This document shows, piece by piece, positions 4,016 to 62,370 of a stretch of DNA of 64,000 nt. A model generated the notes under the pieces. The model worked only from the letters and a program-made list of their open reading frames with translations, did no database searches and was not told where the DNA came from. The DNA comes from an uncultured Muribaculaceae bacterium (GTDB lineage: Bacteria; Bacillota_I; Bacilli_A; RF39; UBA660): contig CAYJFJ010000001.1 in NCBI GenBank assembly GCA_964369845.1, positions 42,044-106,043 on the forward strand. The letters are read 5' to 3'. Position 1 is the stretch's first letter, and each line of letters opens with the position of its first letter. Made by a program: the position numbers and the translations under genes.

Positions 4016-4642
4016 ATGAAAAAAAGATATAAAATAATTTTAGTGCTAATTGTACTTTTGATAATAATAGCAGTTATAGTAAGTGCACTAAATGCATTTA
4101 CTCCTAAAACAGAAGTTAAAATATTAGAAACAATAGAAGGATTTAGTTATAATTTATCTGATGCAGATACAAAGTTATATAAAGAAAATTATGACTTACT
4201 TAAAGAGGAATTAAAAAAAGAAGAGGTTGATCAAGAAATTTATGCAAAGTTAATTGCTAAACTATTTATAATCGATCTGTATACAATAAATAATAAAATT
4301 AATAAATATGATGTTGGTGGAACAGAATTCGTTTACACAGATATTGTTGATAATTACAAATTAAAAGTAAGTGATACAATCTATAAATATATTTCAAATG
4401 AAGCAAAAAAAGATTTGCCTGAAGTTACTAGTGTAACTATTGAAAGTATTGAAGAAACAGAGTATGAATTAATAATTAACGAAGAAGAAATATTATTTGA
4501 TGGATATGTAATAAAAGCAAACTGGGATTATGAAGAAGATTACGGTTATGATGAAGAGGCTACAATTATAATTGTCTCAAAAGAAGAAAGAATGGAAATA
4601 GTTGAATTTACTAGCGGAGATTTAGATGAAGAAAATAATTAG
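4016..4642 (+). CDS. Signal-anchored extracytoplasmic protein of 208 aa. Translationally coupled downstream of the LtaS-like gene.
   Basis: N-terminal TM segment IILVLIVLLIIIAVIVSAL followed by an acidic domain. Its start is 2 nt after the upstream stop. Confidence 0.45.
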   Translation: MKKRYKIILVLIVLLIIIAVIVSALNAFTPKTEVKILETIEGFSYNLSDADTKLYKENYDLLKEELKKEEVDQEIYAKLIAKLFIIDLYTINNKINKYDVGGTEFVYTDIVDNYKLKVSDTIYKYISNEAKKDLPEVTSVTIESIEETEYELIINEEEILFDGYVIKANWDYEEDYGYDEEATIIIVSKEERMEIVEFTSGDLDEENN

Positions 4643-6620: not shown

Positions 6621-6623
6621 AAA

Positions 6624-6654
6624 AGAAATAATTTGAAATTATTTCTTTTTTTTT
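6624..6654. terminator. Bidirectional rho-independent terminator between convergent genes
   Basis: Perfect inverted repeat AGAAATAATTT/AAATTATTTCT. A T-run (6647-6654) lies on the + side and an A-run (6621-6624) on the other side. Confidence 0.6.
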
Positions 6655-6682
6655 GCAAGAAAAAAACATATATATATATGCT

Positions 6683-7513
6683 TTATTTCTTTTTCTTATT
6701 TCCTAATTGTTTATTAATTGCATCTACTTTACTTTTTTTAGTGTTAGTATTATTTTTCTTCTTAGTAGAAGAGTTTTTAGATTTAGCACTAGTTTTCTTC
6801 TTAGTAGAAGCATTTTTGTTTTTAGTATTAGTATTTTTAGAAGTAGTTTCTTTTTTACTTGTAACTTTAATTTCTGATTTATTATTTTCAGCAGCAGGTT
6901 TATCTTTTGTTTTCTTAGTTTTATTTTGCTTGTTATCTTTAACGTTAGTCTTTTTAACTTCTTCTTTTTTCTTAACTTTAGTATTAGGTTTAACTTTATC
7001 TTTCTTAACTTTTTTAACAGTACTTACTTTACTCTTAACTTTTTTACTATTTTTAAGGTCTACATTTTTAAGTTTATTAAATAAGTTAGAAAATTTATTT
7101 TTAATACCTGTAAACATTGTTTTAGGATTAAATTTACTATTTTGGGTAACCTTTTTAGTTAATGAAGTAACTTTTAATTTTAAGTCATGAGCGTAATCTT
7201 TAAATGTAGGTTTATCACTTTTATCGTTTTTACGTTTTAAGCGATAATTGTTAAAATTAATTTTAATATCTGTAATATAATCTTTAAATTTGATTTTATC
7301 TTTTTGATCTGTTTTCTTTTTAATATCTTTAGTAGAATTAATTTTAACAACTTTCTTATTAGTGTTTTTCTTAATAGTCTTACTTTGAATTTCTTCTTCA
7401 GTAGGTTTAAGAAGTAAAAATAATATAAGAACGGTTAAAGTTAATAAATATAAACAGATCAAACATATAAAAATTATGTCAATTTGATCAAAAGTTTTTG
7501 TCATTTGTATCAC
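6683..7513 (-). CDS. Membrane-anchored, extremely lysine-rich low-complexity protein (276 aa)
   Basis: N-terminal TM segment IIFICLICLYLLTLTVLILFLLL followed by about 230 aa with more than 30% Lys. The overlapping + ORF 6633..7190 is its poly-Phe/Leu mirror image. That ORF starts on TTG inside the terminator, so I reject it. Confidence 0.5.
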   Translation of the reverse strand: MIQMTKTFDQIDIIFICLICLYLLTLTVLILFLLLKPTEEEIQSKTIKKNTNKKVVKINSTKDIKKKTDQKDKIKFKDYITDIKINFNNYRLKRKNDKSDKPTFKDYAHDLKLKVTSLTKKVTQNSKFNPKTMFTGIKNKFSNLFNKLKNVDLKNSKKVKSKVSTVKKVKKDKVKPNTKVKKKEEVKKTNVKDNKQNKTKKTKDKPAAENNKSEIKVTSKKETTSKNTNTKNKNASTKKKTSAKSKNSSTKKKNNTNTKKSKVDAINKQLGNKKKK

Positions 7514-33969: not shown

Positions 33970-34827
33970 ATGTGTAAAATGAAAACGACATTTTTAATAG
34001 TAAACTATAATGATTATTTAACTACGATAGAATTAATTAATAATATTAAAGATTATAAATTAATAACAGAAATAGTAGTAGTAGATAATAATTCGACAGA
34101 TGCATCTTTTGAAAAACTTAGTGAACTTAAAATAAAAAAATTAACAGTTATTAAAAGTGAAAAAAATGGTGGATATTCATATGCACTAAATATAGGAAGC
34201 AGATATTTAATTGATAAATATGAAAGATGTAATATATTTATTAGTAATTCAGATATTATAATAAAGTCTGAAGAAGATTTAGAAAAATTAGTTGAAAAAA
34301 TTAATGAAAGAACAGTAGTAGTAGCACCTAAAATAAATACTCATGGAGTTATAAGTTATGGATGGAGATTACCACGTCCTATGGATGAAGTCTTATTTAA
34401 TATTCCAGGTATACAAAATAAGGTAAAAGAAAAAATGGACTATGATGAATTTTATTTTGACAAAAAAAATAAAACAGTAGATGCTGTTTCGGGATGTTTT
34501 TTTCTTATAGATTCAAGGCATTTAGAAAAAACAAAATATTTTGATGATAAAGTATTTTTATATTATGAAGAAAATATACTTGCTACTAAAACAAAAAAAT
34601 CTAATAAAAGAACATTATTAGTATTTGATGTTGAAGTACTTCATAATCACTCAGTAACTATTAATAAACATGTAAAGAAAATTAATAAAGTTAAAATTCA
34701 AAAAAAATCACAATTATATTTTGAAAAAAAATATAATAATGCTAATTTTTATGAAATATTATTACTGCGATTAACAGCATTTTTAGCAATAATTTTATTA
34801 AGTATTAAATATAAAGTAGGTAAATAA
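33970..34827 (+). CDS. GT2-family glycosyltransferase
   Basis: Segments FLIVNYNDY...VVVDNNSTD and GGYSYALN. Confidence 0.7.
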   Translation: MCKMKTTFLIVNYNDYLTTIELINNIKDYKLITEIVVVDNNSTDASFEKLSELKIKKLTVIKSEKNGGYSYALNIGSRYLIDKYERCNIFISNSDIIIKSEEDLEKLVEKINERTVVVAPKINTHGVISYGWRLPRPMDEVLFNIPGIQNKVKEKMDYDEFYFDKKNKTVDAVSGCFFLIDSRHLEKTKYFDDKVFLYYEENILATKTKKSNKRTLLVFDVEVLHNHSVTINKHVKKINKVKIQKKSQLYFEKKYNNANFYEILLLRLTAFLAIILLSIKYKVGK

Positions 34828-34828
34828 T

Positions 34829-35296
34829 ATGAAAAAAGTAATGTTTATAGCAAGTGCGGGCGGGCATTTAGATGAATTAATGCAGTTAAAACCAATATTT
34901 AAAAAGTATAAATATAGTTTGATTACAGAAAAAATTAAAAGTAATGATTCATTAAAAGAAAAGTTTGATAATGTACATTTTTTAGTGTTTGGAAGTAAAA
35001 GTAAAATATTTACATATTTGTTTAAATTCACTTTTAATTGTTTTAAATCATTATTCTTGTATATCAAGATAAGACCTAAAGTTATAGTTACAACTGGAAC
35101 ACATACAGCAGTTCCTATGTGTTATATAGGTAAACTTTTTGGCAGTAAAATAATATTCATTGAAACATTTGCTAATCAAAATACTAAAACTATGGCGGGT
35201 AGACTAGTATATCCAATAGCGAATGTATTTATAGTGCAGTGGGCAAGTATGTTAGAGTTATATCCTAAAGCTGTATATGAAGGGTGGATTTATTAA
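34829..35296 (+). CDS. Alg14-like membrane-anchoring subunit of a split UDP-GlcNAc transferase
   Basis: 155 aa. Motif FIASAGGHLDELMQL typical of Alg14/EpsF/Cps14F. Confidence 0.65.
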   Translation: MKKVMFIASAGGHLDELMQLKPIFKKYKYSLITEKIKSNDSLKEKFDNVHFLVFGSKSKIFTYLFKFTFNCFKSLFLYIKIRPKVIVTTGTHTAVPMCYIGKLFGSKIIFIETFANQNTKTMAGRLVYPIANVFIVQWASMLELYPKAVYEGWIY

Positions 35297-35775
35297 TGAT
35301 TTTGGTAACACTAGGAACTCAAGATAAAAGTTTTGTAAGGCTTTTAAATCAAATAGAAGAAGAAATAAAAAAAGGGAATATTGTAGATAAAGTAGTAGTT
35401 CAAGCTGGTAATACAAAATTTACCTCAGAAAATATAGAAGTTTTAGATTTTGTTGAATATGAAAAGTTTAATAAATTAATCAAATCATGTGATTTGTTAA
35501 TTACTCATGGCGGAGTAGGATCAATTATAACAGGTCTTAAGAATAATAAAAAAGTAATAGGAGTCGCAAGACTTAAAAAATATCATGAACATGAAAATGA
35601 TCATCAAGAACAAATTTTAAAATCATTCAAAGAAAAAAATTTCATATTAGTTTGTGATGAATTGGAGAATTTAAACGAAGTTTTAAAAAAAGTAGATACA
35701 TTTAAACCTACGAAATATATTAGTAATACTAGTGGGATGAGAAGTGCAGTTAAAATGTATATTGACAGTTTTTAA
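35284..35775 (+). CDS. Alg13-like catalytic subunit (Glyco_tran_28_C) of a split UDP-GlcNAc transferase
   Basis: Segments ILVTLGTQDKSF and ITHGGVGSI. Overlaps the Alg14-like gene. Confidence 0.65.
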   Translation: MDLLMILVTLGTQDKSFVRLLNQIEEEIKKGNIVDKVVVQAGNTKFTSENIEVLDFVEYEKFNKLIKSCDLLITHGGVGSIITGLKNNKKVIGVARLKKYHEHENDHQEQILKSFKEKNFILVCDELENLNEVLKKVDTFKPTKYISNTSGMRSAVKMYIDSF

Positions 35776-36015: not shown

Positions 36016-37155
36016 ATGTGGATTATAAATAAATTTAAATCAATGAAAAAAGAAACAGCAATTATTATGGTAAGTGTTATTGCTTTAACAATATCTACTC
36101 TAGGCTTTTCATACGCAGCATTTTTTGACATCAGTACATCAAGTGGAAGTAATGTAATAACTACTGGAGACTTATCAGTTACATTTGGTAATTCATCGTC
36201 AACTATTATAAATAATGAAATGGTTCCACAAGCTGACGCTGTAGGGCTAGCAAGTTCTAGTTTAAGCACACTTTATTTACAAAATGATGGAATATACAAT
36301 GCAAGTTTCATTATGAGTATTGGTTATGATAGTGATGCATTTATTTCAAGTACTGGATATACTTCTGGTGATGAAATGGTACCACTTGAATTTTTAAAAG
36401 CAGCAGTTTTTGCTTATGATAATGAAACTAAGCAAATGATTCAAGTAAGCGACGTTATTAAATTATCGGATTTACCAGTAAATAGTTATGATTCTAGCAA
36501 TACATTAAATAATGAATATGTTTTGTTTGAAGATGAAATAGGAAAGACATCATCTGGAAATAATAATAAGACTTATGCTATAAAAGTATGGCTTGATGAA
36601 TTTACGCCAGATACTTATACAAATCATAAATTGTATTTAAAGTTAAATGTTATTTCAACTGTTACAGAATCTAGAATGAATTACAATGTATCTGGAGTTT
36701 TGAAAGATGAAACTGGGAGCGTATTACCAAATGCAGAAATAAATCTTCAAAATGGTTCATTTAAAACAACGACTGATTCATCTGGTAATTATACATTAAA
36801 TGATTTAAGAGAAGGTGTTTATGATATTCAAATTACAACGCAGTCAAGTGAAGTAATTAATGGAACATTTAAAGTTGTAGAATCAACAGAAGAAAAAATT
36901 CAAAAATATCAAACATCACATACTATTACATCTGGTGATAACTTAAGTAAAATAGCTTATATATATTCAAGTACGACAGATCAAATCAGAGGAGTAAATG
37001 AAATATATCATACATCTAATAATGTGACTTTAGTAAATGGTGATAGTTTAATAATCCCGAACGTATATATAATAAATGGTGGAACTAATGCAAACATGGC
37101 TAATGTAACTATAGAAGTTAGTGGTGGAAGTATTAGCAAGATAAGTAAAAATTAG
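36016..37155 (+). CDS. Secreted TasA/camelysin-family protein with a SipW-cognate-type signal peptide, fused to a CarboxypepD_reg-like domain and a LysM domain
   Basis: - Signal and cleavage region ...LTISTLGFSYAAFFDISTSSGSNVITTGDLSV. Compare TasA ...AFNDIKS..ATFASGTLDLS and camelysin FFSDKE..FAAGTLDL.
- CarboxypepD_reg-like segment SGVLKDETGSVLPNAEINLQNGSFKTTTDSSGNYTLNDLREGVYDIQI.
- LysM segment HTITSGDNLSKIAYIY...DQIRGVNEI...VTLVNGDSLIIP. Confidence 0.55.
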   Translation: MWIINKFKSMKKETAIIMVSVIALTISTLGFSYAAFFDISTSSGSNVITTGDLSVTFGNSSSTIINNEMVPQADAVGLASSSLSTLYLQNDGIYNASFIMSIGYDSDAFISSTGYTSGDEMVPLEFLKAAVFAYDNETKQMIQVSDVIKLSDLPVNSYDSSNTLNNEYVLFEDEIGKTSSGNNNKTYAIKVWLDEFTPDTYTNHKLYLKLNVISTVTESRMNYNVSGVLKDETGSVLPNAEINLQNGSFKTTTDSSGNYTLNDLREGVYDIQITTQSSEVINGTFKVVESTEEKIQKYQTSHTITSGDNLSKIAYIYSSTTDQIRGVNEIYHTSNNVTLVNGDSLIIPNVYIINGGTNANMANVTIEVSGGSISKISKN

Positions 37156-37164
37156 GAGAAAAGA

Positions 37165-37803
37165 ATGAAAAAGGAAAAAAGAAACAAATTAACATTAATA
37201 ATTTTGACAATATTAATATTATTATTTACTTCTATTACAGCTACATTTGCATACTTTACTGCAACAGGAACAAGTAATGTAATAAATAGATATAAAATTT
37301 CAACACCTGTTTATGGAAGGGCTTATACTTCATCAGGAGGAAATATAAATTTAGAAGTATCTGGAGAATTGATGCACGCATCATCAGCAAGCTCTGTTAC
37401 ACCTGCTGCTGTTGCAAAGATAGATGATGCATTATCAATAACAGTTGAAACATCTAGTGAGGGTGGAACAACTACATGTAATTATGATATAGTCTATGAG
37501 CCGAACGTTGCATATATGGCTAGTGCAGAAAATGTATCAAATTCGAAAGAATTTACAATAAAAATTGAATCAAATTTACAAAAAGATATAACTGGTGAAG
37601 TTAATTTAAATAACGTTACTGAAAAAATAGTTTTAGCAGATAATTTAGAAGTTGAAGCAACTGGTATTTCGTTATCTAAAACAGAAGTTATAAGTGCAGA
37701 AGTATCATTTTACAATCAAATATTTAATCAAGATGACAATAAAGATATCACATTTGGTGGAAGGCTTTACATCGAAGATTTAACTTGTGAAACAATTAAT
37801 TAA
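37165..37803 (+). CDS. Small secreted protein with a SipW-cognate-type signal peptide (ATFAYFTA)
   Basis: RBS AGGAGAA. N-terminus MKKEKRNKLTLIILTILILLFTSITATFAYFTATGTS. Shares TCNYDIVYEP and C-terminal GG...C motifs with the next gene. Confidence 0.5.
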   Translation: MKKEKRNKLTLIILTILILLFTSITATFAYFTATGTSNVINRYKISTPVYGRAYTSSGGNINLEVSGELMHASSASSVTPAAVAKIDDALSITVETSSEGGTTTCNYDIVYEPNVAYMASAENVSNSKEFTIKIESNLQKDITGEVNLNNVTEKIVLADNLEVEATGISLSKTEVISAEVSFYNQIFNQDDNKDITFGGRLYIEDLTCETIN

Positions 37804-37810
37804 AAAATGC

Positions 37811-37839
37811 TTGCAAAATAAAAAAAAAAGTGATAATAT
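37811..37839 (+). promoter_or_regulatory. Strong promoter for the third SipW-signal gene
   Basis: TTGCAA (37811-37816), a 17-nt spacer, then TGaTAATAT (extended -10, 37831-37839). Confidence 0.5.
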
Positions 37840-37865
37840 TTTATTATAGTAGAGAGGAAAAAGTC

Positions 37866-38543
37866 ATGGAAAATAAAAAAAACACAATGCTATTAACAGT
37901 AATCGCAATAGCAACATTATTAGTAGCAGTAGTAGGAGCAACATTCGCTTACTTTACAGCTGCTAACTCAAACAGTGCTGCATCTGATGTTCAAGTACAA
38001 ACTAAATCAGTAGATACAGTGAGTTCAAGTTCAACTGATACTGATTTAACAATTGAACCTGAAGATATGCTACAAACTGCGGGAAATAATAATTTCAGCG
38101 TATACAAAAGTAGTAATACTGCATCAGTAACTATGGAAAATGAAGTAGGTACTGGTGGAGGTACAAATACTTGTACTTATGATGTTGTTTATACTCCAAA
38201 AGTTGACGGTGCATTCGTTTACGCTTTAGGTAATACTTCAAACCTTAAAGAATTTACTCTTCAAGGAACTGGAGCTATAACTGGAGCTACTGCATCTGCA
38301 ACTTCATCAACTGTAGCTATTCCAGAAGCTGATTTAGCTGGAGCAACTAATGCTACTCCTGTAACATTATTAGATAACGCTACGTTTGCTGTAACTGGTG
38401 CTGTAAATGTTGAAACTTCTGCAACATTAACTTGGACAATGGAAGTAAGATTCTATAACTTAGCTGTTGATCAAAGTTCAAATGCTGGTAAAACTTATGG
38501 TGGAACTATTTCATTTGAAAACGTTAACTGCGTAAATAGTTAA
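37866..38543 (+). CDS. Small secreted protein with a SipW-cognate-type signal peptide (ATFAYFTA). Probably the abundant major subunit. The true start is the ATG at 37866, not the track's 37830.
   Basis: RBS GAGAGG precedes the ATG at 37866. The track start at 37830 lies inside the promoter. N-terminus MENKKNTMLLTVIAIATLLVAVVGATFAYFTAANS. Codon usage is shifted towards gct/act/ggt/gta, typical of highly expressed genes. A strong terminator follows. Confidence 0.5.
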   Translation: MENKKNTMLLTVIAIATLLVAVVGATFAYFTAANSNSAASDVQVQTKSVDTVSSSSTDTDLTIEPEDMLQTAGNNNFSVYKSSNTASVTMENEVGTGGGTNTCTYDVVYTPKVDGAFVYALGNTSNLKEFTLQGTGAITGATASATSSTVAIPEADLAGATNATPVTLLDNATFAVTGAVNVETSATLTWTMEVRFYNLAVDQSSNAGKTYGGTISFENVNCVNS

Positions 38544-51985: not shown

Positions 51986-52588
51986 TTATCTATTGTAGAA
52001 TTCTACGATTAATTGTTCATTAACTTCTTGGTTAAGTTCACTTCTTTCAGGGAATCTAACATATTTTCCAACTTTTGATTTTTTATCAAATTCAACGAAA
52101 GCTGGAGTAGAAAGATTAACTTCTAAAGCATCAACTACTGCTGGATGATTTAAAGATCTTTCTTTAATAGTTATAACATCTCCTGGTTTACAAGTGTAAG
52201 AAGGAATATCAACTTTGCTACCATTAACTAAAATATGTCCATGGTTAACAATTTGTCTTGAACTTCTTCTTGTTCTAGCCATACCTAATCTATAAACAAC
52301 GTTATCTAATCTTGATTCTAAAAGTATTAAAAGGTTAATACCAGTAATACCATTCATATGAGCAGCTCTATCGAAAGTTTTTCTGAATTGTTTTTCAGTT
52401 AAACCATACATAGTTCTAACTTTTTGTTTTTCTTGTAACTGAACACCGTAGTCACTAAGTTTTCTACGACGATCTTGACCATGAGCACCAGGTGCATAAG
52501 GTCTTTTAGCTAAGTCTTTACCATTTTCAAGAGTAGAAAATCCTAATCTTCTAGATTTTTTATAAGCTGGTCCTGTATATCTTGACAT
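51986..52588 (-). CDS. rpsD: 30S ribosomal protein S4
   Basis: Segments [18 protein letters not shown] and [14 protein letters not shown] (S4 domain). Confidence 0.9.
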
Positions 52589-52852: not shown

Positions 52853-54568
52853 ATGAGTAAAGAAACTTTTATACTAATAGCAAGTGCGTATTATATTTTT
52901 TCAATTATGTTAATAATTGGTGTTTTAGTGTTCATAAATCATAAGCAAAAGAAAAAGTTTAAAAAGGAAATAGAAAAACTAGAAAGAGAGAAGAACTTGA
53001 TAATATCAGCTTCGATACTTTCAGAACTAAATAAAGTAGAATCTTTAGCTAATAATGATGATCTTAAAAGTAAATTTGATAATTGGAAAGAAAGATTTAA
53101 TGAAATTAAAGAAGCAGATTTATCAAAGATAACAGATGAAATTAATGATATTGAAACATTATTTATAGAAAAAAACTTTAAAGAACTTAAAAATGTAATA
53201 TTATCCACTGAAGTTAATCTTAACAGAATTAAAACTAAATCGGACTTTTTATTAGAAGAAATAAAAGAAATAACATTATCTGAAGAACGTAATAGAGAAA
53301 CTATAACTAATTTAAAAACTGAATATAGAGATATACAAAGATTGTACAAAGATGATGAACATAGTTTTGATTTGATAAGAACACCTATAGAGCTTCAATT
53401 TGAAAACGTAGATAAACTATTTATAGCTTTTGAAGATTTAATGGAAAAGAATGAATATACTGAAGTTGGAAAAGTTGTTAAAGCAGTAGCAGACTTAGTA
53501 GGTAATTTAAAAGTCGTAGTTACTGAGACAAAACCAATAATAAATTTAGGTAAAAATTTGATTCCTAAAAAAATTGAAGAAGTAATGTTTATTGAAAGTA
53601 GACTTGAAAAAGAAGGTTATAGTTTAGAGTATTTAAATATAGAATATAATAAAAATGAAGCAGAAAAAAAGATAGCAGACGTATTTCAAAGACTAAATGT
53701 GCTTAACTTAGAAGATTCTTTATTTGAACTTAAAACAATGTATGATTATTTTGATTCATTAATAAGTGATTTTGAGAAAGAAAGAATTGCTAAGAAAAAT
53801 TTTGAAGAACATGTAAGAACAGTTATTTTAAAAGCAAGTAAACTTGAAAAATATAATAATGAACTTTTAAGAAAAATAGATGATATAAAATATAGTTATG
53901 ATTTATCTGATGATGATGCAATGATTATATTTGAGCTTCGTGATGAGCTATCTTTAATTAGAGAAACATATGATAGATTAATAGATACACATAGAAATAG
54001 AAATGTACCATATACTAAGTTATCTAAAGAAATGGATAATATTAATTTAAAATTATCTAAAGCAGAAGAAAAACTTAACTTAGCACTTAGAACTTTAGGA
54101 AGTTTAAAAGAAGATGAAAAAAGAGCTAGAGAGCAGCTTGAAGAAATCAAAAAAATATTATTTACTGCTAAAGAAAAAGTAAGGTCATATAAACTACCTA
54201 CGATACCTAAAAATTATTATGTAGAGTTATCTGAGGCTATGCAGGCAATAGATATATTAAGTGATGAACTTGATAAAAGACCTATATCTATAAAAGTGCT
54301 TAATACAAGAGTAGATACAACAAGAGATTTAGTTTTAAAAGTATATAATACGATAAATGAAACTATTAAAACGGCAAAAATGGCAGAATCTGCAATAATA
54401 TATGGAAATAGATATAGATTAACAAATAAAGAAGTGGATTTTGGTTTAACTAAAGCTGAAAATTTATTTTATAAAGGAAGTTTCAAAAATAGTTTAGAAA
54501 ATGCAATAAATGCAATAAACATCATTGAGCCAGGAATACATAAAAGACTATTGGAGGAATATAGATGA
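52853..54568 (+). CDS. ezrA: Septation ring formation regulator EzrA
   Basis: N-terminal TM helix. About 570 aa of coiled coil. C-terminal ...YGNRYR... patch like B. subtilis EzrA. Synteny with rpsD. Confidence 0.75.
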   Translation: MSKETFILIASAYYIFSIMLIIGVLVFINHKQKKKFKKEIEKLEREKNLIISASILSELNKVESLANNDDLKSKFDNWKERFNEIKEADLSKITDEINDIETLFIEKNFKELKNVILSTEVNLNRIKTKSDFLLEEIKEITLSEERNRETITNLKTEYRDIQRLYKDDEHSFDLIRTPIELQFENVDKLFIAFEDLMEKNEYTEVGKVVKAVADLVGNLKVVVTETKPIINLGKNLIPKKIEEVMFIESRLEKEGYSLEYLNIEYNKNEAEKKIADVFQRLNVLNLEDSLFELKTMYDYFDSLISDFEKERIAKKNFEEHVRTVILKASKLEKYNNELLRKIDDIKYSYDLSDDDAMIIFELRDELSLIRETYDRLIDTHRNRNVPYTKLSKEMDNINLKLSKAEEKLNLALRTLGSLKEDEKRAREQLEEIKKILFTAKEKVRSYKLPTIPKNYYVELSEAMQAIDILSDELDKRPISIKVLNTRVDTTRDLVLKVYNTINETIKTAKMAESAIIYGNRYRLTNKEVDFGLTKAENLFYKGSFKNSLENAINAINIIEPGIHKRLLEEYR

Positions 54569-55692
54569 TATATTTAGATTATAGTGCAACAACACCAGTT
54601 TCACTAGAAGTGCAAGATGCAGTTAATAAAGCAACAAATGAGTTTATTGGAAATCCAAATTCGCTAAATGCACTTGGAAAAAAATCAAAAGATTTAATGG
54701 AAAGTGCAATAGAGCAAATATCAGAAATACTAACTTGTCAAAAAGAAGAACTTATATTTACAAGTGGAGCAACTGAATCTAATAACATGGCTTTAATAGG
54801 TTCAGCCCTTGCAAATCATAAGTGGGGAAAACATATAATAACAACAAGACTAGAACATCCTAGTATATATGCTATTTGTGATTATTTACAGTCTATTGGT
54901 TTTGAAATAGATTATGTAGATAATGATGAAGAAGGTTTAGTAGATTTTGAAAAATTAAAAAAACTAATTAGAGAAGATACAATTTTAGTAAGTGTATGCG
55001 GGGTAAACTCAGAGCTTGGTATTAGGCAGCCTCTTAAAATGATTAAACAAATAATCAAAAAAGAAAATCCAAATACATATTTACATTCAGATTTAACGCA
55101 AGGAATTGGTAAATTTCCAATGAATATATATGATGTTGATTTAGCAAGTTTTTCAGCTCATAAAATATATGGACCTAAAGGAATAGGGTTATTTTATAAA
55201 GCAAAAAGTATTAAATCAACACCACTTATGTATGGATCTGGAAAGTTTGAATATTTAAAACCAGGAACTCCAGCACTACCACTTATCGTAGGTTTTTCAA
55301 AAGCTTTAAGATTATCTCAAGTAGAACTTGAAAAAAGAATAAATTTTATTGAAAGATTAAATGAAAAACTAGTATATGAATTCGAAAGCATTGAAGGAAT
55401 AAAAGTTAATAAAACTAAATATTCTATACCACAAATATTAAATATAAGTTTACTTAACATAAGACCTGAAACTTTTATAAGAGCAATGGATGAACATGAA
55501 ATATATTTAAGTACAAATACAGCGTGTGCATCAGGAGAAAAATCTCCATCTATTATGGCTGTTTATAAAGATTCAAAAAGAGCAGAAACATCAATAAGAA
55601 TAAGTATATCTCATTTAACAAGTTTAGATGAAATAAATAGATTTATAAAAACATTTAAAGAAGAATATCAAAAACTAAATACACTGAAATAA
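54565..55692 (+). CDS. Cysteine desulfurase (NifS/IscS class V aminotransferase), the thiI-associated NifZ-like enzyme
   Basis: PLP lysine context SFSAHKIYGPKGIGLFY. Motif LSTNTACASGE. Synteny with thiI. Confidence 0.8.
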   Translation: MIYLDYSATTPVSLEVQDAVNKATNEFIGNPNSLNALGKKSKDLMESAIEQISEILTCQKEELIFTSGATESNNMALIGSALANHKWGKHIITTRLEHPSIYAICDYLQSIGFEIDYVDNDEEGLVDFEKLKKLIREDTILVSVCGVNSELGIRQPLKMIKQIIKKENPNTYLHSDLTQGIGKFPMNIYDVDLASFSAHKIYGPKGIGLFYKAKSIKSTPLMYGSGKFEYLKPGTPALPLIVGFSKALRLSQVELEKRINFIERLNEKLVYEFESIEGIKVNKTKYSIPQILNISLLNIRPETFIRAMDEHEIYLSTNTACASGEKSPSIMAVYKDSKRAETSIRISISHLTSLDEINRFIKTFKEEYQKLNTLK

Positions 55693-55757
55693 ATTTTCGG
55701 TGTTTTTATTTACAAAAAATTTAATTTTTGTTATTATTTATATAGTAAAGAGGATAT

Positions 55758-57458
55758 ATGAAAAAGATAAAAGAAGTTTTAAAAAAATTGAAACCAGATA
55801 CAAAATTCAAAAAATTTATAACTACTCAGTTAGTATTAATAGTTATAGTTTTCTTATTTTTAATATTTACTGGTTCATTTGCATACCTAGGAAATCTAAT
55901 CGGAGATGGAATAAATACAATTACAAATATAAATTCATATAATCCAAGCGAAAGAAGATTCTTCTTTACGCCCCATGATCCAGTTCCTTTTGGAGTAAGT
56001 ACAAGTGGTTTTGCAGATGGAAGTGGATCTATAACTAATGAAAAAGACCAGCTTGCAACTTTAATTAAAGGAGAAGCTGAGTCTAGCGCTACCGAAAACT
56101 ATAGTGTATATGTAGATTTATCAAATAATACATTTATTTATACTACAGCAGCTAAAACAGCAGAGCTTCTACTAAACGTAGTAGATCCAGAAGGAAATGA
56201 AGTTACATCGATTGCTGGACTTACAAGAGTGACAGTAACTGATGCCACTGGTAAAAGTTATACAGGCTTTGATATAACTGAAATAAACAGAATGATTAGA
56301 ATAATAGAAAACAGAAGTATTACAACTACAAGCCAAAAAGAAGAAGAGTGGACAATGTCAGTTACATTTGTAGATTTACCTAGTAGTCAAACGAGTAACG
56401 CAAATAAAGATTTAGATATCGATATACATTTTCAAAAAGAAGCATACCCACATTTAATAGTAAATGCTGAAAATACATATTATATAGGACCTAATGTTAG
56501 TTTTGATTGTGAAGGAGCAGGAGCTAGATGGGATGCTGCTACTAACAGTTTAATAGTGTCTTCACTTAATGCCGTAGGTGAGTGTACACTTACCCAAAAC
56601 AAAAATGAATCAGCAACACCTTTAGATGATTATATAGTATCTTTGTCAGGAACTACTCAAGGAACAGGAGAAGTAGTAAATGAAAATGGCTATAGATATG
56701 AGGGTAAAAATCCTAATAACTATATATGGTTTAATGAAGAGTTGTGGCGAGTAATTGGAGTATTTGATACAGTGCTTGCAGACGGAACAACTACAGAAAG
56801 GCTTACTAAAATTATAAAAGCAGATTCGATAGGCAGTTATGCCTGGGATTCTGAAAATGTAAATAACTGGAATGAATCGACATTAAAAGCACTGCTTAAT
56901 ACAAGTTACTTAAATAGTGAAAATGGAACAGGAACTGAAAACTGTTACGGTTATAGAGCGAGCGTGCCAACTAATTGTGATTATACACAAAATGGAATAA
57001 AAAATGAGTATAAATCGATGATAGAAAACGTAACATGGAATCTTGGAGGTTTTTCATCAAGTAGCACAGCTGCATCAGCAGTATTTGCAGCAGAAAGAGG
57101 TACTACAGTGTACACAGGCAACCCTACTACAGGAACTGGATATATTGGATTAATGTATCCAAGTGATTATATGTATTCAAGTTTAGAAAGTAGCTGCTCA
57201 AGAACTACAACGTTTAATAATTATGATTCTAGTTCATGTGCAGGAGCAAACTGGATGTACGGAGAAGGTTATGAATGGACGTTAGCGCCTGTCTCTTCCA
57301 GCTCTGTGCTTGCGTGGGATCTGAGGAATGGTGGTTACGGCAATGGCACCGATTCGAGAAGCGGGGATGGCGTGCGCCCTGTCTTGTATTTAAACTCTGA
57401 GGTGAAGTACTTGGATGGAGCGGGAAGCGAAGCGGATCCGCTTATCGTAGAAATGTAA
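55758..57458 (+). CDS. Signal-anchored surface protein, paralog A, with a C-terminal conserved lectin-like domain (WTLxP...GVRPVLYL)
   Basis: N-terminal TM helix followed by GSFAYLGN (resembles a SipW-cognate motif). T/S/G-rich extracellular region. The C-terminal ~270 aa are more than 85% identical to paralog B, and stretches of the nucleotide sequence are identical. Confidence 0.5.
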   Translation: MKKIKEVLKKLKPDTKFKKFITTQLVLIVIVFLFLIFTGSFAYLGNLIGDGINTITNINSYNPSERRFFFTPHDPVPFGVSTSGFADGSGSITNEKDQLATLIKGEAESSATENYSVYVDLSNNTFIYTTAAKTAELLLNVVDPEGNEVTSIAGLTRVTVTDATGKSYTGFDITEINRMIRIIENRSITTTSQKEEEWTMSVTFVDLPSSQTSNANKDLDIDIHFQKEAYPHLIVNAENTYYIGPNVSFDCEGAGARWDAATNSLIVSSLNAVGECTLTQNKNESATPLDDYIVSLSGTTQGTGEVVNENGYRYEGKNPNNYIWFNEELWRVIGVFDTVLADGTTTERLTKIIKADSIGSYAWDSENVNNWNESTLKALLNTSYLNSENGTGTENCYGYRASVPTNCDYTQNGIKNEYKSMIENVTWNLGGFSSSSTAASAVFAAERGTTVYTGNPTTGTGYIGLMYPSDYMYSSLESSCSRTTTFNNYDSSSCAGANWMYGEGYEWTLAPVSSSSVLAWDLRNGGYGNGTDSRSGDGVRPVLYLNSEVKYLDGAGSEADPLIVEM

Positions 57459-57467
57459 TTAGGGAAG

Positions 57468-57513
57468 GTGACGAATTTGACGGTCTTTTTGGCCGTCCGT
57501 CACCCGACTTTTG
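57468..57513 (+). terminator. GC-rich 3' hairpin conserved after both paralogs
   Basis: gtgacgaatttGACGGtctttttggCCGTCcgtcacccgacttttg. The near-identical copy is at 59660..59705. Confidence 0.5.
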
Positions 57514-57559
57514 AAATAGAGGATGAGAATGAAAGAAACAAAATGTGAACCGAACGTAA

Positions 57560-57943
57560 ATTCGGGGAGGTACCTTATTTTTAACTTTACATAAAAATAA
57601 AAGCAAATTCATTAGTGTTTACAATGAAGATGCGGTTATAGTCAGTTTTTTGTTAGGTTATAAAATAATAGATAATATAAAATGTGGTTTTCCAGATAAT
57701 GCTCTTGATAAAGTTATAGTAAAACTTGAAAACGCTAATATATCTTATTAAGTTATAGATGAAACAGGATTGATTTTAAAAAGTAAAAATATTAAATTGA
57801 ATAAGTATAATAATGTATATGATAAAGCCAAGAAAAATATAGAAATTATAACTAGAATAAATTTATTCTTAAAAAAACTAGAAAAATTAGAAATTAATAA
57901 TATTGAAAATTTATTAGATAGGTTAGATAAATGTTTGGAGTAA
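57560..57943 (+). pseudogene. Decayed gene fragment: a 127-codon frame with no start codon and an internal TAA at 57749-57751. Weak resemblance to MutS mismatch-recognition domain I.
   Basis: The frame opens straight after a stop codon. Translation: ...KFISVYNEDAVIVSFLLGYKIIDNIKCGFPDNALDKVIVKLENANISY*VIDETG... Compare MutS domain I: FYELF.DDA...LLDI.LT.R...IPMAGIPYHA...YL.KLV..G..VAICEQ. Confidence 0.25.
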
Positions 57944-58194
57944 TAAATAAAGAAATGATTTTAATTACTAAATTAAAGTCATTTATAGAATTTTTAGAAA
58001 ACTCAATTTGCAATATCCCTAGAAAAGATGAATTTTACAAATTAGAAATAAGAAAAAGTTATATTTCAATATATAAAAATGTTAATGTCATCAATTTCGA
58101 ACACTTAGAAATTAAAAAGTATAGATTGTTAATTTTAGCTGATATATCATATTTAATGTATTTGTTAGAGATTATTTTAAAAAAAGATATATAA
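57931..58194 (+). CDS. Small ORF of 87 aa in the AT-rich spacer. Doubtful.
   Basis: About 20% GC region. No RBS evident. Overlaps the end of the decayed frame. Confidence 0.2.
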   Translation: MFGVINKEMILITKLKSFIEFLENSICNIPRKDEFYKLEIRKSYISIYKNVNVINFEHLEIKKYRLLILADISYLMYLLEIILKKDI

Positions 58195-58519
58195 ATGAAA
58201 AAAATGCTGAAAAACTAATTTATAAGTTAACTGAAATTAATAAAATATTTAATAGATGGGTTAAAAGTATAAATAAAAGATAAATATATATTACTAAAAA
58301 GATTATATCCTAATTGTTTATTTTTAATAAAAAAGAAAAGTAAATTATATACATATGAAATTGATAAGAAAATATTTGATAAATATAATTTTTAAAAAAT
58401 AAGTCGTATAATAGAAGAAAATTTCAATTTAAAATTTGAAAATCACAATAATTATAAAATTTATTATTTTAAAATTAATTTAATAAATAATTTAGAAAAA
58501 ATGAAGGAGAAAATAAAAT

Positions 58520-59650
58520 ATGAATAAGAAAATTTTTCTGATTTTAACAGGAATAATACTTACTGTAACTACAATTTTTTTAATTAACTTACCTAAAGAT
58601 AAAACATTTTATATTGATGGAATTAAGTTTGCAGTAAATTTAGATGATACTCCTGTTAATGACTTTCCAGCAAAAGGTAACTACAGAGTAGATGTATCCT
58701 GTTCTAATGCAGTAGGAAGATGGCTTTATGATTCATGGGAATTAAAAGTTGATTCTATAACTGATACTGCTTCTTGTTATATTGATTTTTATACACAAAC
58801 GCAGACTATTATGCTTGATGATCACATAGTATCTTTGTCAGGAACTACACAAGGAACTGGTGAAGTAGTAAATGAAAATGGATATAGATATGAAGGAAAA
58901 AATCCAAATAACTATATATGGTTTAATGAAGAGATGTGGAGAGTAATAGGTGTATTTGATACAACACTTGCAGATGGAACAACTACAGAAAGGCTTACTA
59001 AAATTATAAAAGCAGATTCGATAGGCAGTTATGCCTGGGATTCTGAAAATGTAAATAACTGGAATGAATCGACATTAAAATCACTACTTAATACAAGTTA
59101 TTTAAATAGTGAAAATGGAACAGGAACTGAAAACTGTTATGGTTATAGTACGAGCGTGCCAACTAATTGTGATTATTCGCAAAGTGGAATAAAAAATGAA
59201 TATAAATCAATGATAGAAAATGTAACATGGAACCTTGGAAGTTTTTCATCGGGTATCACAACTGCATCAGCACTCTTTGCAGCAGAAAGAGGTACTACAG
59301 TGTACACAGGCAACCCTACTACAGGAACAGGATATATTGGCTTAATGTATCCAAGTGATTATATGTATTCAAGTTTAGAAAGTAGCTGCTCAAGAACTAC
59401 AACGTTTTCTAGTTATGGTTCTAGTTCATGTGCAGGAGCAAATTGGATGTATGGAGAAGGTTATGAATGGACGTTATCGCCTAACTCTTCCAACTCTTTG
59501 TATACATGGTACCTGAGAAACGGTGGTTTCGGCTCTATCAGCAGTTCGAGTAACGAGAATGGTGCGCGTCCTGTCTTATATCTAAACTCTGAGGTGAAAT
59601 ACTTGGACGGAGCGGGAAGCGAAGCGGATCCGCTAATTGTAGAAATGTAA
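58520..59650 (+). CDS. Signal-anchored surface protein, paralog B, with the same C-terminal lectin-like domain
   Basis: RBS GGAGA. N-terminus MNKKIFLILTGIILTVTTIFLI. The C-terminal 270 aa are paralogous to 55758..57458. Confidence 0.5.
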   Translation: MNKKIFLILTGIILTVTTIFLINLPKDKTFYIDGIKFAVNLDDTPVNDFPAKGNYRVDVSCSNAVGRWLYDSWELKVDSITDTASCYIDFYTQTQTIMLDDHIVSLSGTTQGTGEVVNENGYRYEGKNPNNYIWFNEEMWRVIGVFDTTLADGTTTERLTKIIKADSIGSYAWDSENVNNWNESTLKSLLNTSYLNSENGTGTENCYGYSTSVPTNCDYSQSGIKNEYKSMIENVTWNLGSFSSGITTASALFAAERGTTVYTGNPTTGTGYIGLMYPSDYMYSSLESSCSRTTTFSSYGSSSCAGANWMYGEGYEWTLSPNSSNSLYTWYLRNGGFGSISSSSNENGARPVLYLNSEVKYLDGAGSEADPLIVEM

Positions 59651-60001
59651 TTTGGGAAGATGACAAATTTGACGGGCTTTTTGGCTGTCCGTCACCCGAC
59701 TTTTGTAAAATAATGTTTTGCATACTTTATATGCTATTAGTCAAATAGTGGAAAAAAATTTATAGAGATAAATGAATTCGTAAAGAAGAATTTTTACGCT
59801 GCGGAATGTGATAAATAGTTAGTGATTCAGAGGCTTTTTTATTGATGTCTACCAATTGGGGTTCACATTAATTTATAAGTCTCTTTTTATTAAATAAAAA
59901 GATGAGAGTAAAAAACTTACCACCATCAAAAATTATACAATCTAAATGACCTTGTTATTTATGTTTTTATTTGTTAAAATACATATGAAGTTGGTGAAGT
60001 A

Positions 60002-61180
60002 GTGAAAAAAGTAATAATAATTAAATATGGAGAACTTAGTACTAAGGGTGGTAATTTAAATTTCTTTTTAAAGAAACTAAAGAATAATATAGAAAATCAG
60101 TTAAAAGGTTTAGAATTTAAAATAAATTATGATCATGGAAGAATGTTTATTGAAACATTTGATTTTGATAAAGTAATGGAAAAATTAGTTAAAGTATTTG
60201 GAATACATGAAATAAATGTTGGATATTTACTTGATACTAATAATTTAGATGAAGTAAAATCATTTTTACTTGAAAAAGTAGCAGAAAAGAGTTTTAATAC
60301 ATTTAAAGTCGAAACAAAAAGAAATTATAAACAGTATCCACTTGATAGTATGGCTATTTCTAGAAGTATAGGTGGACATATTCTTAAAAACATAAAAGAT
60401 ATTACTGTTGATGTACACAGTCCAGACCTTAAAATAAATATTGAAGTTAGAAAAGAAGAAACTGTAATATATTTTGATAAAGTAAAAGGTTTAGGTGGTT
60501 ACCCAGTAGGAACGCAGGGAAGAGGTTTACTAATGCTTTCTGGAGGAATAGACTCACCAGTGGCAGGTTACCTTGCAATTAAAAGAGGAATAGCTCTAGA
60601 TGCTGTTTATTTTGATTCTCCGCCACACACAAGTGAAAAAGCAAAAGATAAAGTTAAAAGACTTGCTAAAAAATTAAAAGAATATGATTTAACAACTGGA
60701 ATGTATATTGTGAATTTTACTAAGATGCAAGAAGAAATACTTAAGAATATAGATCATGAATATTTAATAACAATAATGAGAAGAATGATGTATAGAATAA
60801 CTGAAAGAATTTGTTTAAGACATAAAATGCATATAATAGTAAATGGTGAATCTATTGGTCAAGTAGCTAGTCAAACACTTACAAGTATGAAAGCAATTAA
60901 TGAAGTAGTTAAACTTCCTGTAATAAGACCTGTAGCATGTTTAGATAAACTTGAAATAATAGAGCTTGCTAAAAAAATAGGAACTTATGAGACAAGTATA
61001 GAACCATTTGAAGACTGCTGCACGATATTTGTACCAAAGCATCCAGTTATAAATCCTGAAATAAAAAAATGTGTAGAATTTGAAAAACAAATAAATTGGG
61101 AAGAATTAATAAATGAAATAATGAGTAATATTGAATACATTTCTCTAAAAGAAGAAAAAGTATATTCAGATATATTATAA
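60002..61180 (+). CDS. thiI: tRNA 4-thiouridine(8) synthase ThiI
   Basis: THUMP domain and PP-loop motif LMLSGGIDSPVAGY. Confidence 0.85.
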   Translation: MKKVIIIKYGELSTKGGNLNFFLKKLKNNIENQLKGLEFKINYDHGRMFIETFDFDKVMEKLVKVFGIHEINVGYLLDTNNLDEVKSFLLEKVAEKSFNTFKVETKRNYKQYPLDSMAISRSIGGHILKNIKDITVDVHSPDLKINIEVRKEETVIYFDKVKGLGGYPVGTQGRGLLMLSGGIDSPVAGYLAIKRGIALDAVYFDSPPHTSEKAKDKVKRLAKKLKEYDLTTGMYIVNFTKMQEEILKNIDHEYLITIMRRMMYRITERICLRHKMHIIVNGESIGQVASQTLTSMKAINEVVKLPVIRPVACLDKLEIIELAKKIGTYETSIEPFEDCCTIFVPKHPVINPEIKKCVEFEKQINWEELINEIMSNIEYISLKEEKVYSDIL

Positions 61181-61476: not shown

Positions 61477-62370
61477 ATGTCATTAACAAGTGATCCAGTG
61501 TTTAAAATATTTTTTAAAAGAGATGTAAAAAGACTAGAATTTATAATAAATGAAATAACAAATTTGAATATATCTAAAGAAGATATAGTATTTAGTGATA
61601 CAGAGGTAATGGGAAGTTTTGATGATACGAAAGTATCTAGACTTGATTTACATGTAACACTTAAGTCTGGAGAAAAAGTATATATTGAAATGCAAAATGT
61701 AAAAGAAAAACATATTGTAGAAAGAATAGGATATTATTCGTCTAAATTAATTACTGATCAAGTAAAGAAGGGGGATAATTATTTAAGAGTAAAAAAAGTT
61801 TATTCGATTTTCTTTATTAATTATAAAAATTCAAGGTATCCAGATTTGTTTACAAAGCTAGTAGTCTATGATAAAATTAACTCAAAAGAAGAAGATGCAC
61901 TTTGGGAAAATAATATAATCAATTTAACTAAGATAAATAGTAATACTTATTTTGGCGAAAAAATGATGGATTTTCTAAAATTTATGGTAGCATCATCTGA
62001 TGAGGAGATGGAAATAATGGCAAGAGATAGTGAAGAATTAGAAGAGATTTATCAAACATATAAAGACATTACAGCAGATGATGAAATAAGAGCATACATT
62101 TGGGCTAGAGATAAATATGAAATAGATAAATCAGCACACTTAGAATATGCACGAATGGATGGACATGAACAAGGTCTTAAAGAAGGGCGAGAAGAAGGTC
62201 TAGAACAAGGAATTGAACAAGGAATTGAACAAGGAATTGAACAAGGAATTGAACAAGGGAAAATAGAAGTTATTAAAAGTATGATACAAAATGGAGTAGA
62301 TGTTGCAGTTATAGAAAAAACAACTAATTATACAATTTCAGAAATAGAAAAGCTAAAAAAAGAAATTTGA
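61477..62370 (+). CDS. Rpn/YhgA-like (PDDEXK_7, TIGR01784-type) recombination-promoting nuclease with a C-terminal GIEQ tandem repeat
   Basis: N-terminus MSLTSDPVFKIFFK (DxxFKxxF signature). C-terminal region EQGIEQGIEQGIEQGIEQG, encoded by a 12-bp repeat x4 at 62209..62256. Confidence 0.7.
   Translation: MSLTSDPVFKIFFKRDVKRLEFIINEITNLNISKEDIVFSDTEVMGSFDDTKVSRLDLHVTLKSGEKVYIEMQNVKEKHIVERIGYYSSKLITDQVKKGDNYLRVKKVYSIFFINYKNSRYPDLFTKLVVYDKINSKEEDALWENNIINLTKINSNTYFGEKMMDFLKFMVASSDEEMEIMARDSEELEEIYQTYKDITADDEIRAYIWARDKYEIDKSAHLEYARMDGHEQGLKEGREEGLEQGIEQGIEQGIEQGIEQGKIEVIKSMIQNGVDVAVIEKTTNYTISEIEKLKKEI

Follow-up and report, generated by a model that had tools for sequence, protein, structure and literature searches.

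Probable remains of a diversity-generating retroelement cassette with two C-type-lectin-like target genes between a cysteine desulfurase gene and thiI in an AT-rich gut member of the Bacilli

We analysed a stretch of 64 kb (hereafter the window), the visible part of a contig of at least 110 kb from an AT-rich gut member of the Bacilli, of which 'Candidatus Onthocola' is one named relative. Between the gene for an IscS/NifS-type cysteine desulfurase (nifZ) and thiI, the window carries 4309 nucleotides (nt), at positions 55693-60001, which form an insertion relative to the related locus L002. In L002 the same four genes (rpsD, ezrA, nifZ and thiI) stand in the same order, ThiI is 59% identical, and just 8 nt separate the end of the desulfurase gene from thiI. 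The interruption of about 4.3 kb in conserved synteny, proposed in a first-pass annotation of this DNA, is thus borne out. The insertion contains two paralogous genes and, between them, the debris of what was very probably the machinery of a diversity-generating retroelement (DGR). In a DGR, a reverse transcriptase (RT) acting with the accessory variability determinant (Avd) copies the RNA of a template repeat (TR) with adenine-specific errors, and the resulting cDNA overwrites a homologous variable region (VR) in a target gene.

The two paralogous genes, here called A and B, lie on the forward strand. Gene A (55758-57458) encodes 566 amino acids (aa); the protein begins with a transmembrane (TM) helix and an SFAYL motif, continues with an N-terminal module of some 285 aa and closes with a C-type-lectin-like domain of 282 aa. 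Gene B (58520-59650) encodes 376 aa, with a TM anchor, a small beta module and the same 282-aa domain. Both open reading frames (ORFs) are open, each with its own N-terminal hydrophobic helix and promoter-like site; the promoter scan placed one site upstream of A (55709-55737) and another, with 11/12 matches, at 58361-58389, within the remnant of ORF Y described below. The two proteins are 79% identical over 320 aa (BLASTP). At the DNA level, 56625-57516 matches 58817-59708 with 90.5% identity over 892 nt, extending about 58 nt beyond the stop codons and through a GC-rich hairpin, and the longest identical runs are 105, 66 and 53 nt. The motif WTL[SA]P...LRNGG...G[VA]RPVLYLN is present in both proteins. 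The shared region has a GC content of 0.31-0.49, and the spacer of 1061 nt between the genes one of 0.13-0.23. The earlier description of two anchored paralogues with identical stretches of about 100 nt, in a shared region richer in GC than the spacer, is therefore confirmed by the alignment and the base composition.

In its N-terminal half, A shares 37% identity (E = 4e-52) with the first target, T1, of a DGR cassette in a related genome (L003), and on account of this orthology we assign A to T1 and B to the second target, T2. A further T1, from the related cassette L007, retrieves A by tblastn with E = 1e-107. When the first 285 aa of A served as the query, the homologue search gave no match, not even A itself, which we take as a search miss since the L003 T1 is clearly homologous. 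For B, 4148 homologues were found, mostly of about 377 aa and about 55% identical over the full length. A tblastn search of B against 50,697 phage records gave no match, and no phage genes were found around the targets.

The spacer was searched by tblastn with the proteins of L007, which is an intact cassette, and three remnants were located on the forward strand. The first (57587-57940) is a pseudogene of X, a small MutS-like (MSL) accessory gene, matching with E = 2e-20 and 34% identity over 117 aa; it carries one in-frame stop (ISY*VID) and has no usable start codon. The second (57931-58283) is a pseudogene of the Avd gene, which matches L007 Avd (E = 3e-9) in two frames, at 57931-58170 and 58176-58262; the frameshift lies inside an A-run near 58170-58176, and the shifted frame runs to a stop at 58283. 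The third (58291-58539) is a pseudogene of a small ORF termed Y (E = 4e-9), which has lost its start codon and holds one in-frame stop. The spacer had been suggested to hold a decayed gene fragment. Debris is indeed present, but it consists of three pseudogenes rather than one fragment, and its nature as dead DGR machinery had escaped recognition.

The order of the cassette in intact form is T1, MSL (X), bAvd, RT, TR, Y and T2, and the MSL, Avd and Y remnants of the window are collinear with it. Between the targets, therefore, avd and MSL persist in cassette order, as pseudogenes. Intact cassettes carry an RT gene of about 1.06 kb and a TR of about 95 nt between avd and Y. In the window the Avd homology stops at 58283 and the Y homology begins at 58291, leaving a deletion junction at 58284-58290; RT and TR are missing as one block. 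No RT was found anywhere in the 64 kb: the best tblastn match had an E value of 0.029 and lay inside ezrA, and a profile built from three RTs reached no more than 6.5 bits over the complete set of six-frame fragments. Likewise, a DNA profile of TRs and VRs (nhmmer) and blastn yielded only the copies in A and B, without a third TR/VR-like copy in the 64 kb. The window thus holds neither a DGR-clade RT nor a TR paired with a VR.

The intact relatives show what has been lost. In L007, the cassette consists of T1 (459 aa), X (121 aa), bAvd (118 aa), RT (354 aa), a TR of 92 nt, Y (98 aa) and T2 (378 aa). Its X protein matches the Pfam family MutS_I with 21.6 bits (cutoff 20.6), and its bAvd protein matches two families, bAvd of Pfam (E = 4e-6) and 'Avd protein of DGR' of PHROG (E = 3e-12). 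The RT contains the YMDD motif, matches RVT_1 with E = 1.6e-15 and a PHROG RT family with E = 1.6e-55, and is 28-35% identical to known DGR phage RTs, including those of Bordetella phage, Faecalibacterium phage FP_Lagaffe and nd12. The single TR of L007 corresponds to the VR of T1 as well as to that of T2, and the differences are A-to-N changes. In L029 the L007 cassette recurs in near-identical form. A further intact cassette, L028, has the same order and adenine-directed TR/VR differences and belongs to the clade closest to the window; the RTs of these three cassettes are 353-354 aa long. The TR of L028 (5122-5200) is without 18 nt found in both of its VRs (2887-3026 and 6546-6685); either the TR suffered a deletion or the VRs are older. 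In L003, the context of the homologue P0004, a weak RVT_1 gene lies just upstream of the target, and an 89-nt repeat there departs from the 3' part of the target at hardly any position other than the adenines of the upstream copy. We read this pattern as a DGR signature. Adenine-specific differences between TR and VR are seen in both targets of L003, L004, L007 and L028.

ORF Y is conserved between TR and T2 with a length of 87-101 aa, and it always overlaps the start codon of T2. It lies at 6730-7026 in L007, 7742-8008 in L003, 6754-7017 in L004 and 5359-5664 (101 aa) in L028, and is also present in L029 (ORF listings and tblastn cover L003, L004, L007 and L029). Searches of Y against Pfam and PHROG gave no match. 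It may represent an undescribed extra accessory gene of DGRs.

The variability of the two targets is concentrated where such a cassette would place it. VR1 comprises codons 510-539 of A (57285-57374) and VR2 codons 320-349 of B (59477-59566), both on the forward strand; the TR/VR profile matches 57284-57375 with E = 9.5e-20 and 59476-59567 with E = 5e-21. The position of VR1 is homologous to that of the VRs in L003, L004, L007 and L028. VR1 and VR2 diverge by 30% at the nucleotide level, against about 8.5% in the flanks, and the codon changes between A and B are 17 non-synonymous and 3 synonymous in the VR block, compared with 0 and 7 in the downstream 27 codons. In the alignment of 61 T2 homologues, the entropy reaches about 3 bits at 16 punctate codons and is near 0 at the interleaved ones. 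The 16 hypervariable positions of B (322, 325, 327, 328, 331, 333-335, 337, 339-342, 344, 345 and 347) can be compared directly with a template: the TR peptide of L004, SPNSSNSNNVFNLNNNGNVNNNNANNGYAV, aligns without gaps to residues 320-349 of B, and the positions are exactly its 15 Asn codons and one Tyr codon. Hypervariability is, in other words, confined to the TR-adenine (AAY) codons.

Thirteen of the 17 amino-acid differences between A and B in the VR block fall on these 16 codons, and VR2 retains AAC or AAT at 5/16 of them. The closest homologue of B, P0002, which is 80% identical and has an almost identical N-terminus, also diverges most in the VR block. We considered whether B could itself be the TR of A and rejected this, as the differences run both ways and both copies are inside intact ORFs.

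To characterise the shared domain, residues 95-376 of B were modelled with AlphaFold2 from an alignment of 134 sequences, including a second, more divergent homologue set. This model has a predicted local distance difference test score (pLDDT) of 90.8 and a predicted TM-score (pTM) of 0.92, and replaced an earlier model of the whole of B, built on 61 close homologues (pLDDT 53). The model places the VR on beta-hairpins (model residues 226-255). Foldseek against the PDB gave one strong match, the IgA peptidase (IgAse) of Thomasclavelia ramosa (PDB 9QA6; E = 3.6e-8 over 293 columns, TM-score 0.47, sequence identity 12%), followed by weaker matches to the C-terminal domain of Legionella Lcl (8Q4E, E = 0.2) and then to classical C-type-lectin-like domains (CTLDs); the TM-scores of the Foldseek matches are modest, at 0.4-0.5. 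The N-terminal domain of the IgAse has been described as a CTLD core of twice the usual size, similar to the Lcl C-terminal domain (Lcl-CTD) (PMC12237041). Among predicted viral structures, the top matches are gut-phage DUF6273 proteins (E = 1e-8 to 1e-4), with DUF1566 proteins lower; DUF6273 is a C-type-lectin (CLec)-like target domain of DGRs (PMC10743442).

At the sequence level, Pfam DUF6273 (PF19789) matches B with 15.1 bits against a threshold of 23.5, over profile positions 130-171, corresponding to the last ~40 residues, and does not match A. Pfam and NCBIfam gave nothing else for A and B. Of the 61 relatives, 36 match PF19789 at E <= 0.1 (best 3.5e-5), and a profile of the 61 homologues found nothing at E <= 10 among PDB sequences. 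The shared domain is thus confidently modelled as an enlarged C-type-lectin-like fold of the DUF6273 type, linked to that family by fold and not by a sequence threshold, and the VR falls in this CLec-type fold near the C-terminus. A lectin-like, DUF6273-type module had been anticipated in the first-pass annotation, and the AlphaFold2 and Foldseek results support it, with the Pfam match below threshold. Elsewhere in the wider family of this domain, P0215 and P0217 carry an N-terminal prepilin-type N-methylation domain (PF07963) instead of the TM anchor, and it seems that one and the same binding module is joined to different devices for surface display.

Outside the VR, the two targets of a genome resemble each other more than they resemble their orthologues. 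Over the C-terminal 285 aa, T1 and T2 are 86% identical in the window, 78% in L003, 84% in L004 and 91% in L007, against 51-75% for between-genome pairs, in which T1s do not group with T1s; L028 contains a 300-nt tract of T1 and T2 at 99% identity. Because the TR spans only ~95 nt, homogenisation over ~850 nt is attributed to recombination between the copies. Gene conversion thus appears to keep the lectin domains of T1 and T2 alike outside the VR, in all genomes examined, and plays a secondary part, the family owing its variability to the DGR. The suggestion that the locus encodes variable surface adhesins exchanging C-terminal cassettes is in part retained: variable surface binders are plausible and the homogenisation is real, but as the main mechanism the exchange of cassettes is not supported.

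Each target is followed by a hairpin, as had been reported, with the copy after B weakened. The hairpin 3' of A (57467-57504, forward strand) is GC-rich and two-tiered, with an outer stem of 7 bp, a bulge, an inner stem of 7 bp and a loop of 5 nt (-12 kcal/mol, z = -3.5). The copy 3' of B (59659-59696, forward strand) is degenerate, with substitutions on both arms (-6 kcal/mol, z = -1.0). In L003 and L007 the same bipartite design follows both targets, several of the hairpins being without a proper T-run, and the L003 hairpin still folds although both arms of its outer stem and of its inner stem differ from those in the window. The hairpins lie ~95 nt beyond the end of the VR, after the stop codon. 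The TR/VR homology of the relatives ends at the G-V/A-R-P codons, where L007 shows TR/VR differences that are not at adenines. The DGR of Bordetella phage has a target-recognition element in the form of a hairpin or cruciform downstream of the VR. The terminator scan did not call the hairpins after A and B, and plain intrinsic terminators are not favoured as their identity given this silence and the relatives without T-runs. We conclude that the hairpins belong to the cassette, with target recognition by the DGR and transcription termination as candidate roles.

Decay is recurrent, and related loci show the cassette at every stage of it. Over nine distinct loci, the cassette is intact in L007, L028 and L029; L003 and L004 have a frameshifted or split RT; the window and L027 lack RT and TR through deletion; and nothing of the machinery is left in L009. 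The RT of L003 is frameshifted at YMDD. In L004-L006 (5453-6511), three independent assemblies, the RT is split identically into three ORFs of 60, 62 and 223 aa, and the adjacent T2 protein is identical on 57 contigs, which suggests a DGR that is inactive throughout the population, its VR being fixed. L027 (1-3143), from the same metagenome-assembled genome (MAG) as L003, lies beside rimP-nusA-infB and holds T1, X, an N-terminal part of Avd, a partial Y and T2; it is without RT and TR, and its deletion borders are unlike those of the window, indicating an independent deletion. In the more distant L009 (4610-7598), T1 (602 aa) and T2 stand 8 nt apart without machinery between them; T2 is split into 232 and 152 aa, and the C-terminal blocks of T1 and T2 still differ in a VR-like segment, representing either complete loss of the machinery or a state preceding the DGR. 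The target ORFs are open at most of these stages, the T2 of L009 being the exception. A metagenome scan recovered only distant relatives, 30-43% identical and mostly without DGR parts.

On these grounds, we regard it as highly probable that the insertion is a chromosomal DGR cassette of the MSL/Avd type with two CLec/DUF6273-like targets, in which RT and TR have been lost, the accessory genes have become pseudogenes and the VRs are frozen, the targets being otherwise kept alike by gene conversion. Judging from the TR/VR pattern of the relatives, TR cDNA in the ancestral cassette would have overwritten a VR of ~95 nt near the 3' end of both flanking targets, and 16 Asn/Tyr-templated codons would have been randomised on the lectin-like domain of a membrane-anchored protein. 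In the window lineage, RT and TR were lost as one block, and MSL, avd and Y gained stops or a frameshift or lost their start codons. The target ORFs stayed open, and VR1 and VR2 would be two frozen products of past mutagenic homing. A DGR thus appears to have been active at this locus in the past, and the cassette of the window is presumably inactive at present; A and B are likely to bind ligands at the cell surface.

Several points weigh against this reading. Since the TR of the window is gone, the adenine specificity of its own VRs cannot be shown, and several of the A/B differences in the block are at third positions or at the non-targeted codons 320, 329, 346 and 349, for which ordinary substitution is also needed. 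The visible 64 kb belong to a contig of at least 110 kb, and a second, intact cassette elsewhere is possible. The point lesions of the accessory genes could include consensus errors of the MAG, the Avd frameshift being located in an A-run; such errors cannot, however, explain the deletion of RT and TR. Finally, the hairpins may serve either in target recognition or in transcription termination.

The intact state of both target ORFs, their promoter-like sites and the well-kept hairpin after A would also be expected if the targets were still diversified in trans by an intact DGR, with RT and matching TR, elsewhere in the genome, the local machinery being redundant and decaying. More than one cassette per genome is possible, as L003 and L027 in one MAG illustrate, and P0002, the T2 homologue 80% identical to B, lies on a 23.4-kb NCBI contig. 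We nevertheless consider service in trans unlikely. The 64 kb are devoid of RT and of TR-like sequence, and the hairpin after B is degraded. From the background divergence of 8.5% between A and B, together with the synonymous changes in the VR block, it seems that overwriting has been absent for a long time. The MAG of L003 and L027 is the single genome in which the idea is testable; there, the TR of L003 has no match to the VRs of the RT-less L027 cassette, which argues against such service.

Two further explanations dispense with the loss of a DGR altogether. If no DGR had ever been present, two paralogous adhesins would have swapped C-terminal cassettes by gene conversion alone. T1 and T2 do evolve in concert, they share identical tracts of 53-105 nt in the window, and distant family members such as L009-L018 have no DGR nearby. 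However, chance is very unlikely to yield remnants of MSL (E = 2e-20), Avd (E = 3e-9) and Y (E = 4e-9) in the order of the cassette, the cluster of A/B mismatches coincides with the TR-templated codons of the family, and orthologous T1/T2 pairs flank working DGR parts, so that we judge conversion without a DGR to be very improbable. Still less credible is an assembly artefact of the MAG, namely a collapse around repeats, as the cause of the missing RT and TR. The locus does hold an 892-nt repeat at 90% identity, and the contig of another relative, L001, breaks 64 nt upstream of thiI. Against this, the junction at 58283/58291 lies in unique AT-rich sequence between avd and Y, away from the repeats, the accessory genes carry three further independent lesions, and L027 provides an independent cassette without RT and TR that has other deletion borders.

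Beyond the frozen DGR cassette that we prefer, a more ambitious proposal can be formulated, in which the targets keep evolving their binding surface after the loss, by reciprocal conversion between T1 and T2 or by a DGR in trans, Y is a new accessory gene translationally coupled to T2, and the cassettes form a distinct lineage of chromosomal DGRs with two targets, found in gut Bacilli of reduced genome, in which the RT is switched off time and again when a useful specificity has become fixed. We hold this combined proposal to be rather unlikely.

The surroundings of the cassettes differ everywhere. L003 is flanked by an mraY-type gene and a class-I tRNA synthetase gene, L027 by rimP-nusA, L028 by a Lon-like gene and rnc-smc, L004 by parAB, L007 and L029 by IS66, SNF2 and PDDEXK_2 genes, and the window cassette by nifZ and thiI. 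In the window, rpsD (51986-52588, reverse strand) and ezrA (52853-54568, forward strand) were identified with Pfam and NCBIfam. They are followed on the forward strand by the desulfurase gene nifZ (54565-55692; NCBIfam IscS, NifS and DndA, E = 1e-73 to 2e-87), at whose end a terminator scan found a terminator-like hairpin (55681-55703). On the right, thiI occupies 60002-61180 of the forward strand (TIGR00342, E = 8e-111, above its cutoff). Terminal direct or inverted repeats that would suggest a transposon-like insertion were not found at the insertion borders in the window; an Rfam scan of 55000-60500 gave no match at E <= 1.

The closest ThiI relative (71% identical) is in L001, and the break of its contig upstream of thiI could reflect a repeated cassette. 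L002, without the nifZ-thiI insertion, encodes a 492-aa protein (4108-5586) just upstream of rpsD, with an SFALF motif, a family-like C-terminal tail (...REDPYIIK) and no DGR parts near it. The 'Muribaculaceae' labels on L001 and L002 are at odds with the presence of EzrA in the genome. Just downstream of the cassette region in the window (61477-62370) lies a gene for an Rpn-family PD-(D/E)XK (PDDEXK_2) nuclease or putative transposase, and PDDEXK_2 genes occur in two copies in L007 (11518-13447) and L029 (6999-8967). Such genes beside cassettes may mark recombination-prone hotspots.

A SipW-like FAYL motif after the TM helix of A had been taken as a possible link to a fibre cluster at 36-38.5 kb. 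The motif is real and recurs in three proteins there: SFAYL in A is accompanied by FSYAAF, TFAYF and TFAYF in three tandem genes at 36016-38543 (379, 212 and 237 aa, each with an N-terminal TM helix), the common pattern being (S/T)(F/Y)A(A/Y)(F/L), and T1-type relatives carry TYAYF, TYALF or SFALF after the TM helix. Residues 198-226 of A (29 residues) also resemble the C-terminal end of the 237-aa protein (pairwise E = 8e-5). These short motifs resemble TasA-type (SipW-dependent) signals. No SipW-type signal model of NCBIfam or Pfam matched A, its orthologues or the proteins at 36-38.5 kb, and no signal peptidase was found among the ORFs scanned in 33.9-39.6 kb. The SipW link, resting on a short motif and the 29-residue similarity, should be treated as a lead, not a result. 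Of the tandem proteins, the 379-aa one has CarboxypepD_reg and LysM domains, and the 237-aa one a weak match to the SAG1386/EF1546 surface-protein family (E = 8.6e-6, below cutoff). Directly upstream, at 33970-35775, lie polysaccharide-synthesis genes: a glycosyltransferase-like ORF, an Alg14-like gene and one for a PssE/Cps14G-type glycosyltransferase.

Small MSL accessory genes that co-occur with avd are a described class of DGRs, Architecture D, which includes the Legionella DGR (Wu et al. 2018, PMC5758913). The relatives of the window cassette resemble it in having a small MutS_I-like gene beside avd, a DGR-type RT, a TR, adenine-directed VR changes and a C-terminal VR. They differ in that two targets flank the machinery, the extra ORF Y overlaps the start of T2 and the order is avd, RT, TR; the window copy differs further in having no RT or TR, and its MSL and avd genes are pseudogenes. 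The DUF6273/CLec targets of gut-phage DGRs (tentaclin paper, PMC10743442), including those of Faecalibacterium prophages (PMC11792537), share with A and B the fold match, the VR on beta-hairpins and the C-terminal ...G[VA]RP motif. The window proteins, in contrast, are chromosomal and membrane-anchored, and their sequence match to DUF6273 is sub-threshold and limited to the last ~40 residues.

Comparison with the DGR of Bordetella phage BPP-1 (mtd, avd, TR and brt) reveals similar parts in the relatives: both RT and Avd are present, TR and VR form a pair with A-to-N changes, and the target has a CLec fold and carries its VR at the C-terminus. In addition, the GC-rich 3' end of the L007 VR, with its non-adenine TR/VR differences, resembles the initiation of mutagenic homing sequence (IMH) versus IMH*, with a hairpin downstream. 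Unlike in BPP-1, where the hairpin directly follows the IMH, it lies here ~95 nt beyond the VR end, after the stop codon, and the cassettes have two targets and added MSL and Y genes and are not on a phage. The IgAse N-terminal domain (9QA6) and Lcl-CTD (8Q4E) are similar to the domain of A and B in their C-type-lectin-like cores, and the IgAse domain, like the 282-aa domain, is ~2x the usual CTLD size; no peptidase domain is attached to A or B. To our knowledge, neither the IgAse nor the Lcl structure is a DGR target.

An odd locus, with hypervariable C-termini, GC-rich islands and a junk spacer, is thus explained by a textbook mechanism, and it provides an example of a dead DGR in raw sequence. 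Our understanding of how DGRs work is unchanged by the finding; the window cassette is best seen as an inactive copy of a known kind of system. For annotation, it follows that RT-centred DGR finders will miss such loci, and that the members of the ~377-aa family, which number more than 4000, can be annotated as variable proteins of the DGR-type CLec/DUF6273-like kind. For the small-genome gut Bacilli themselves, the finding suggests that diversification is episodic and that selection retains fixed binders.

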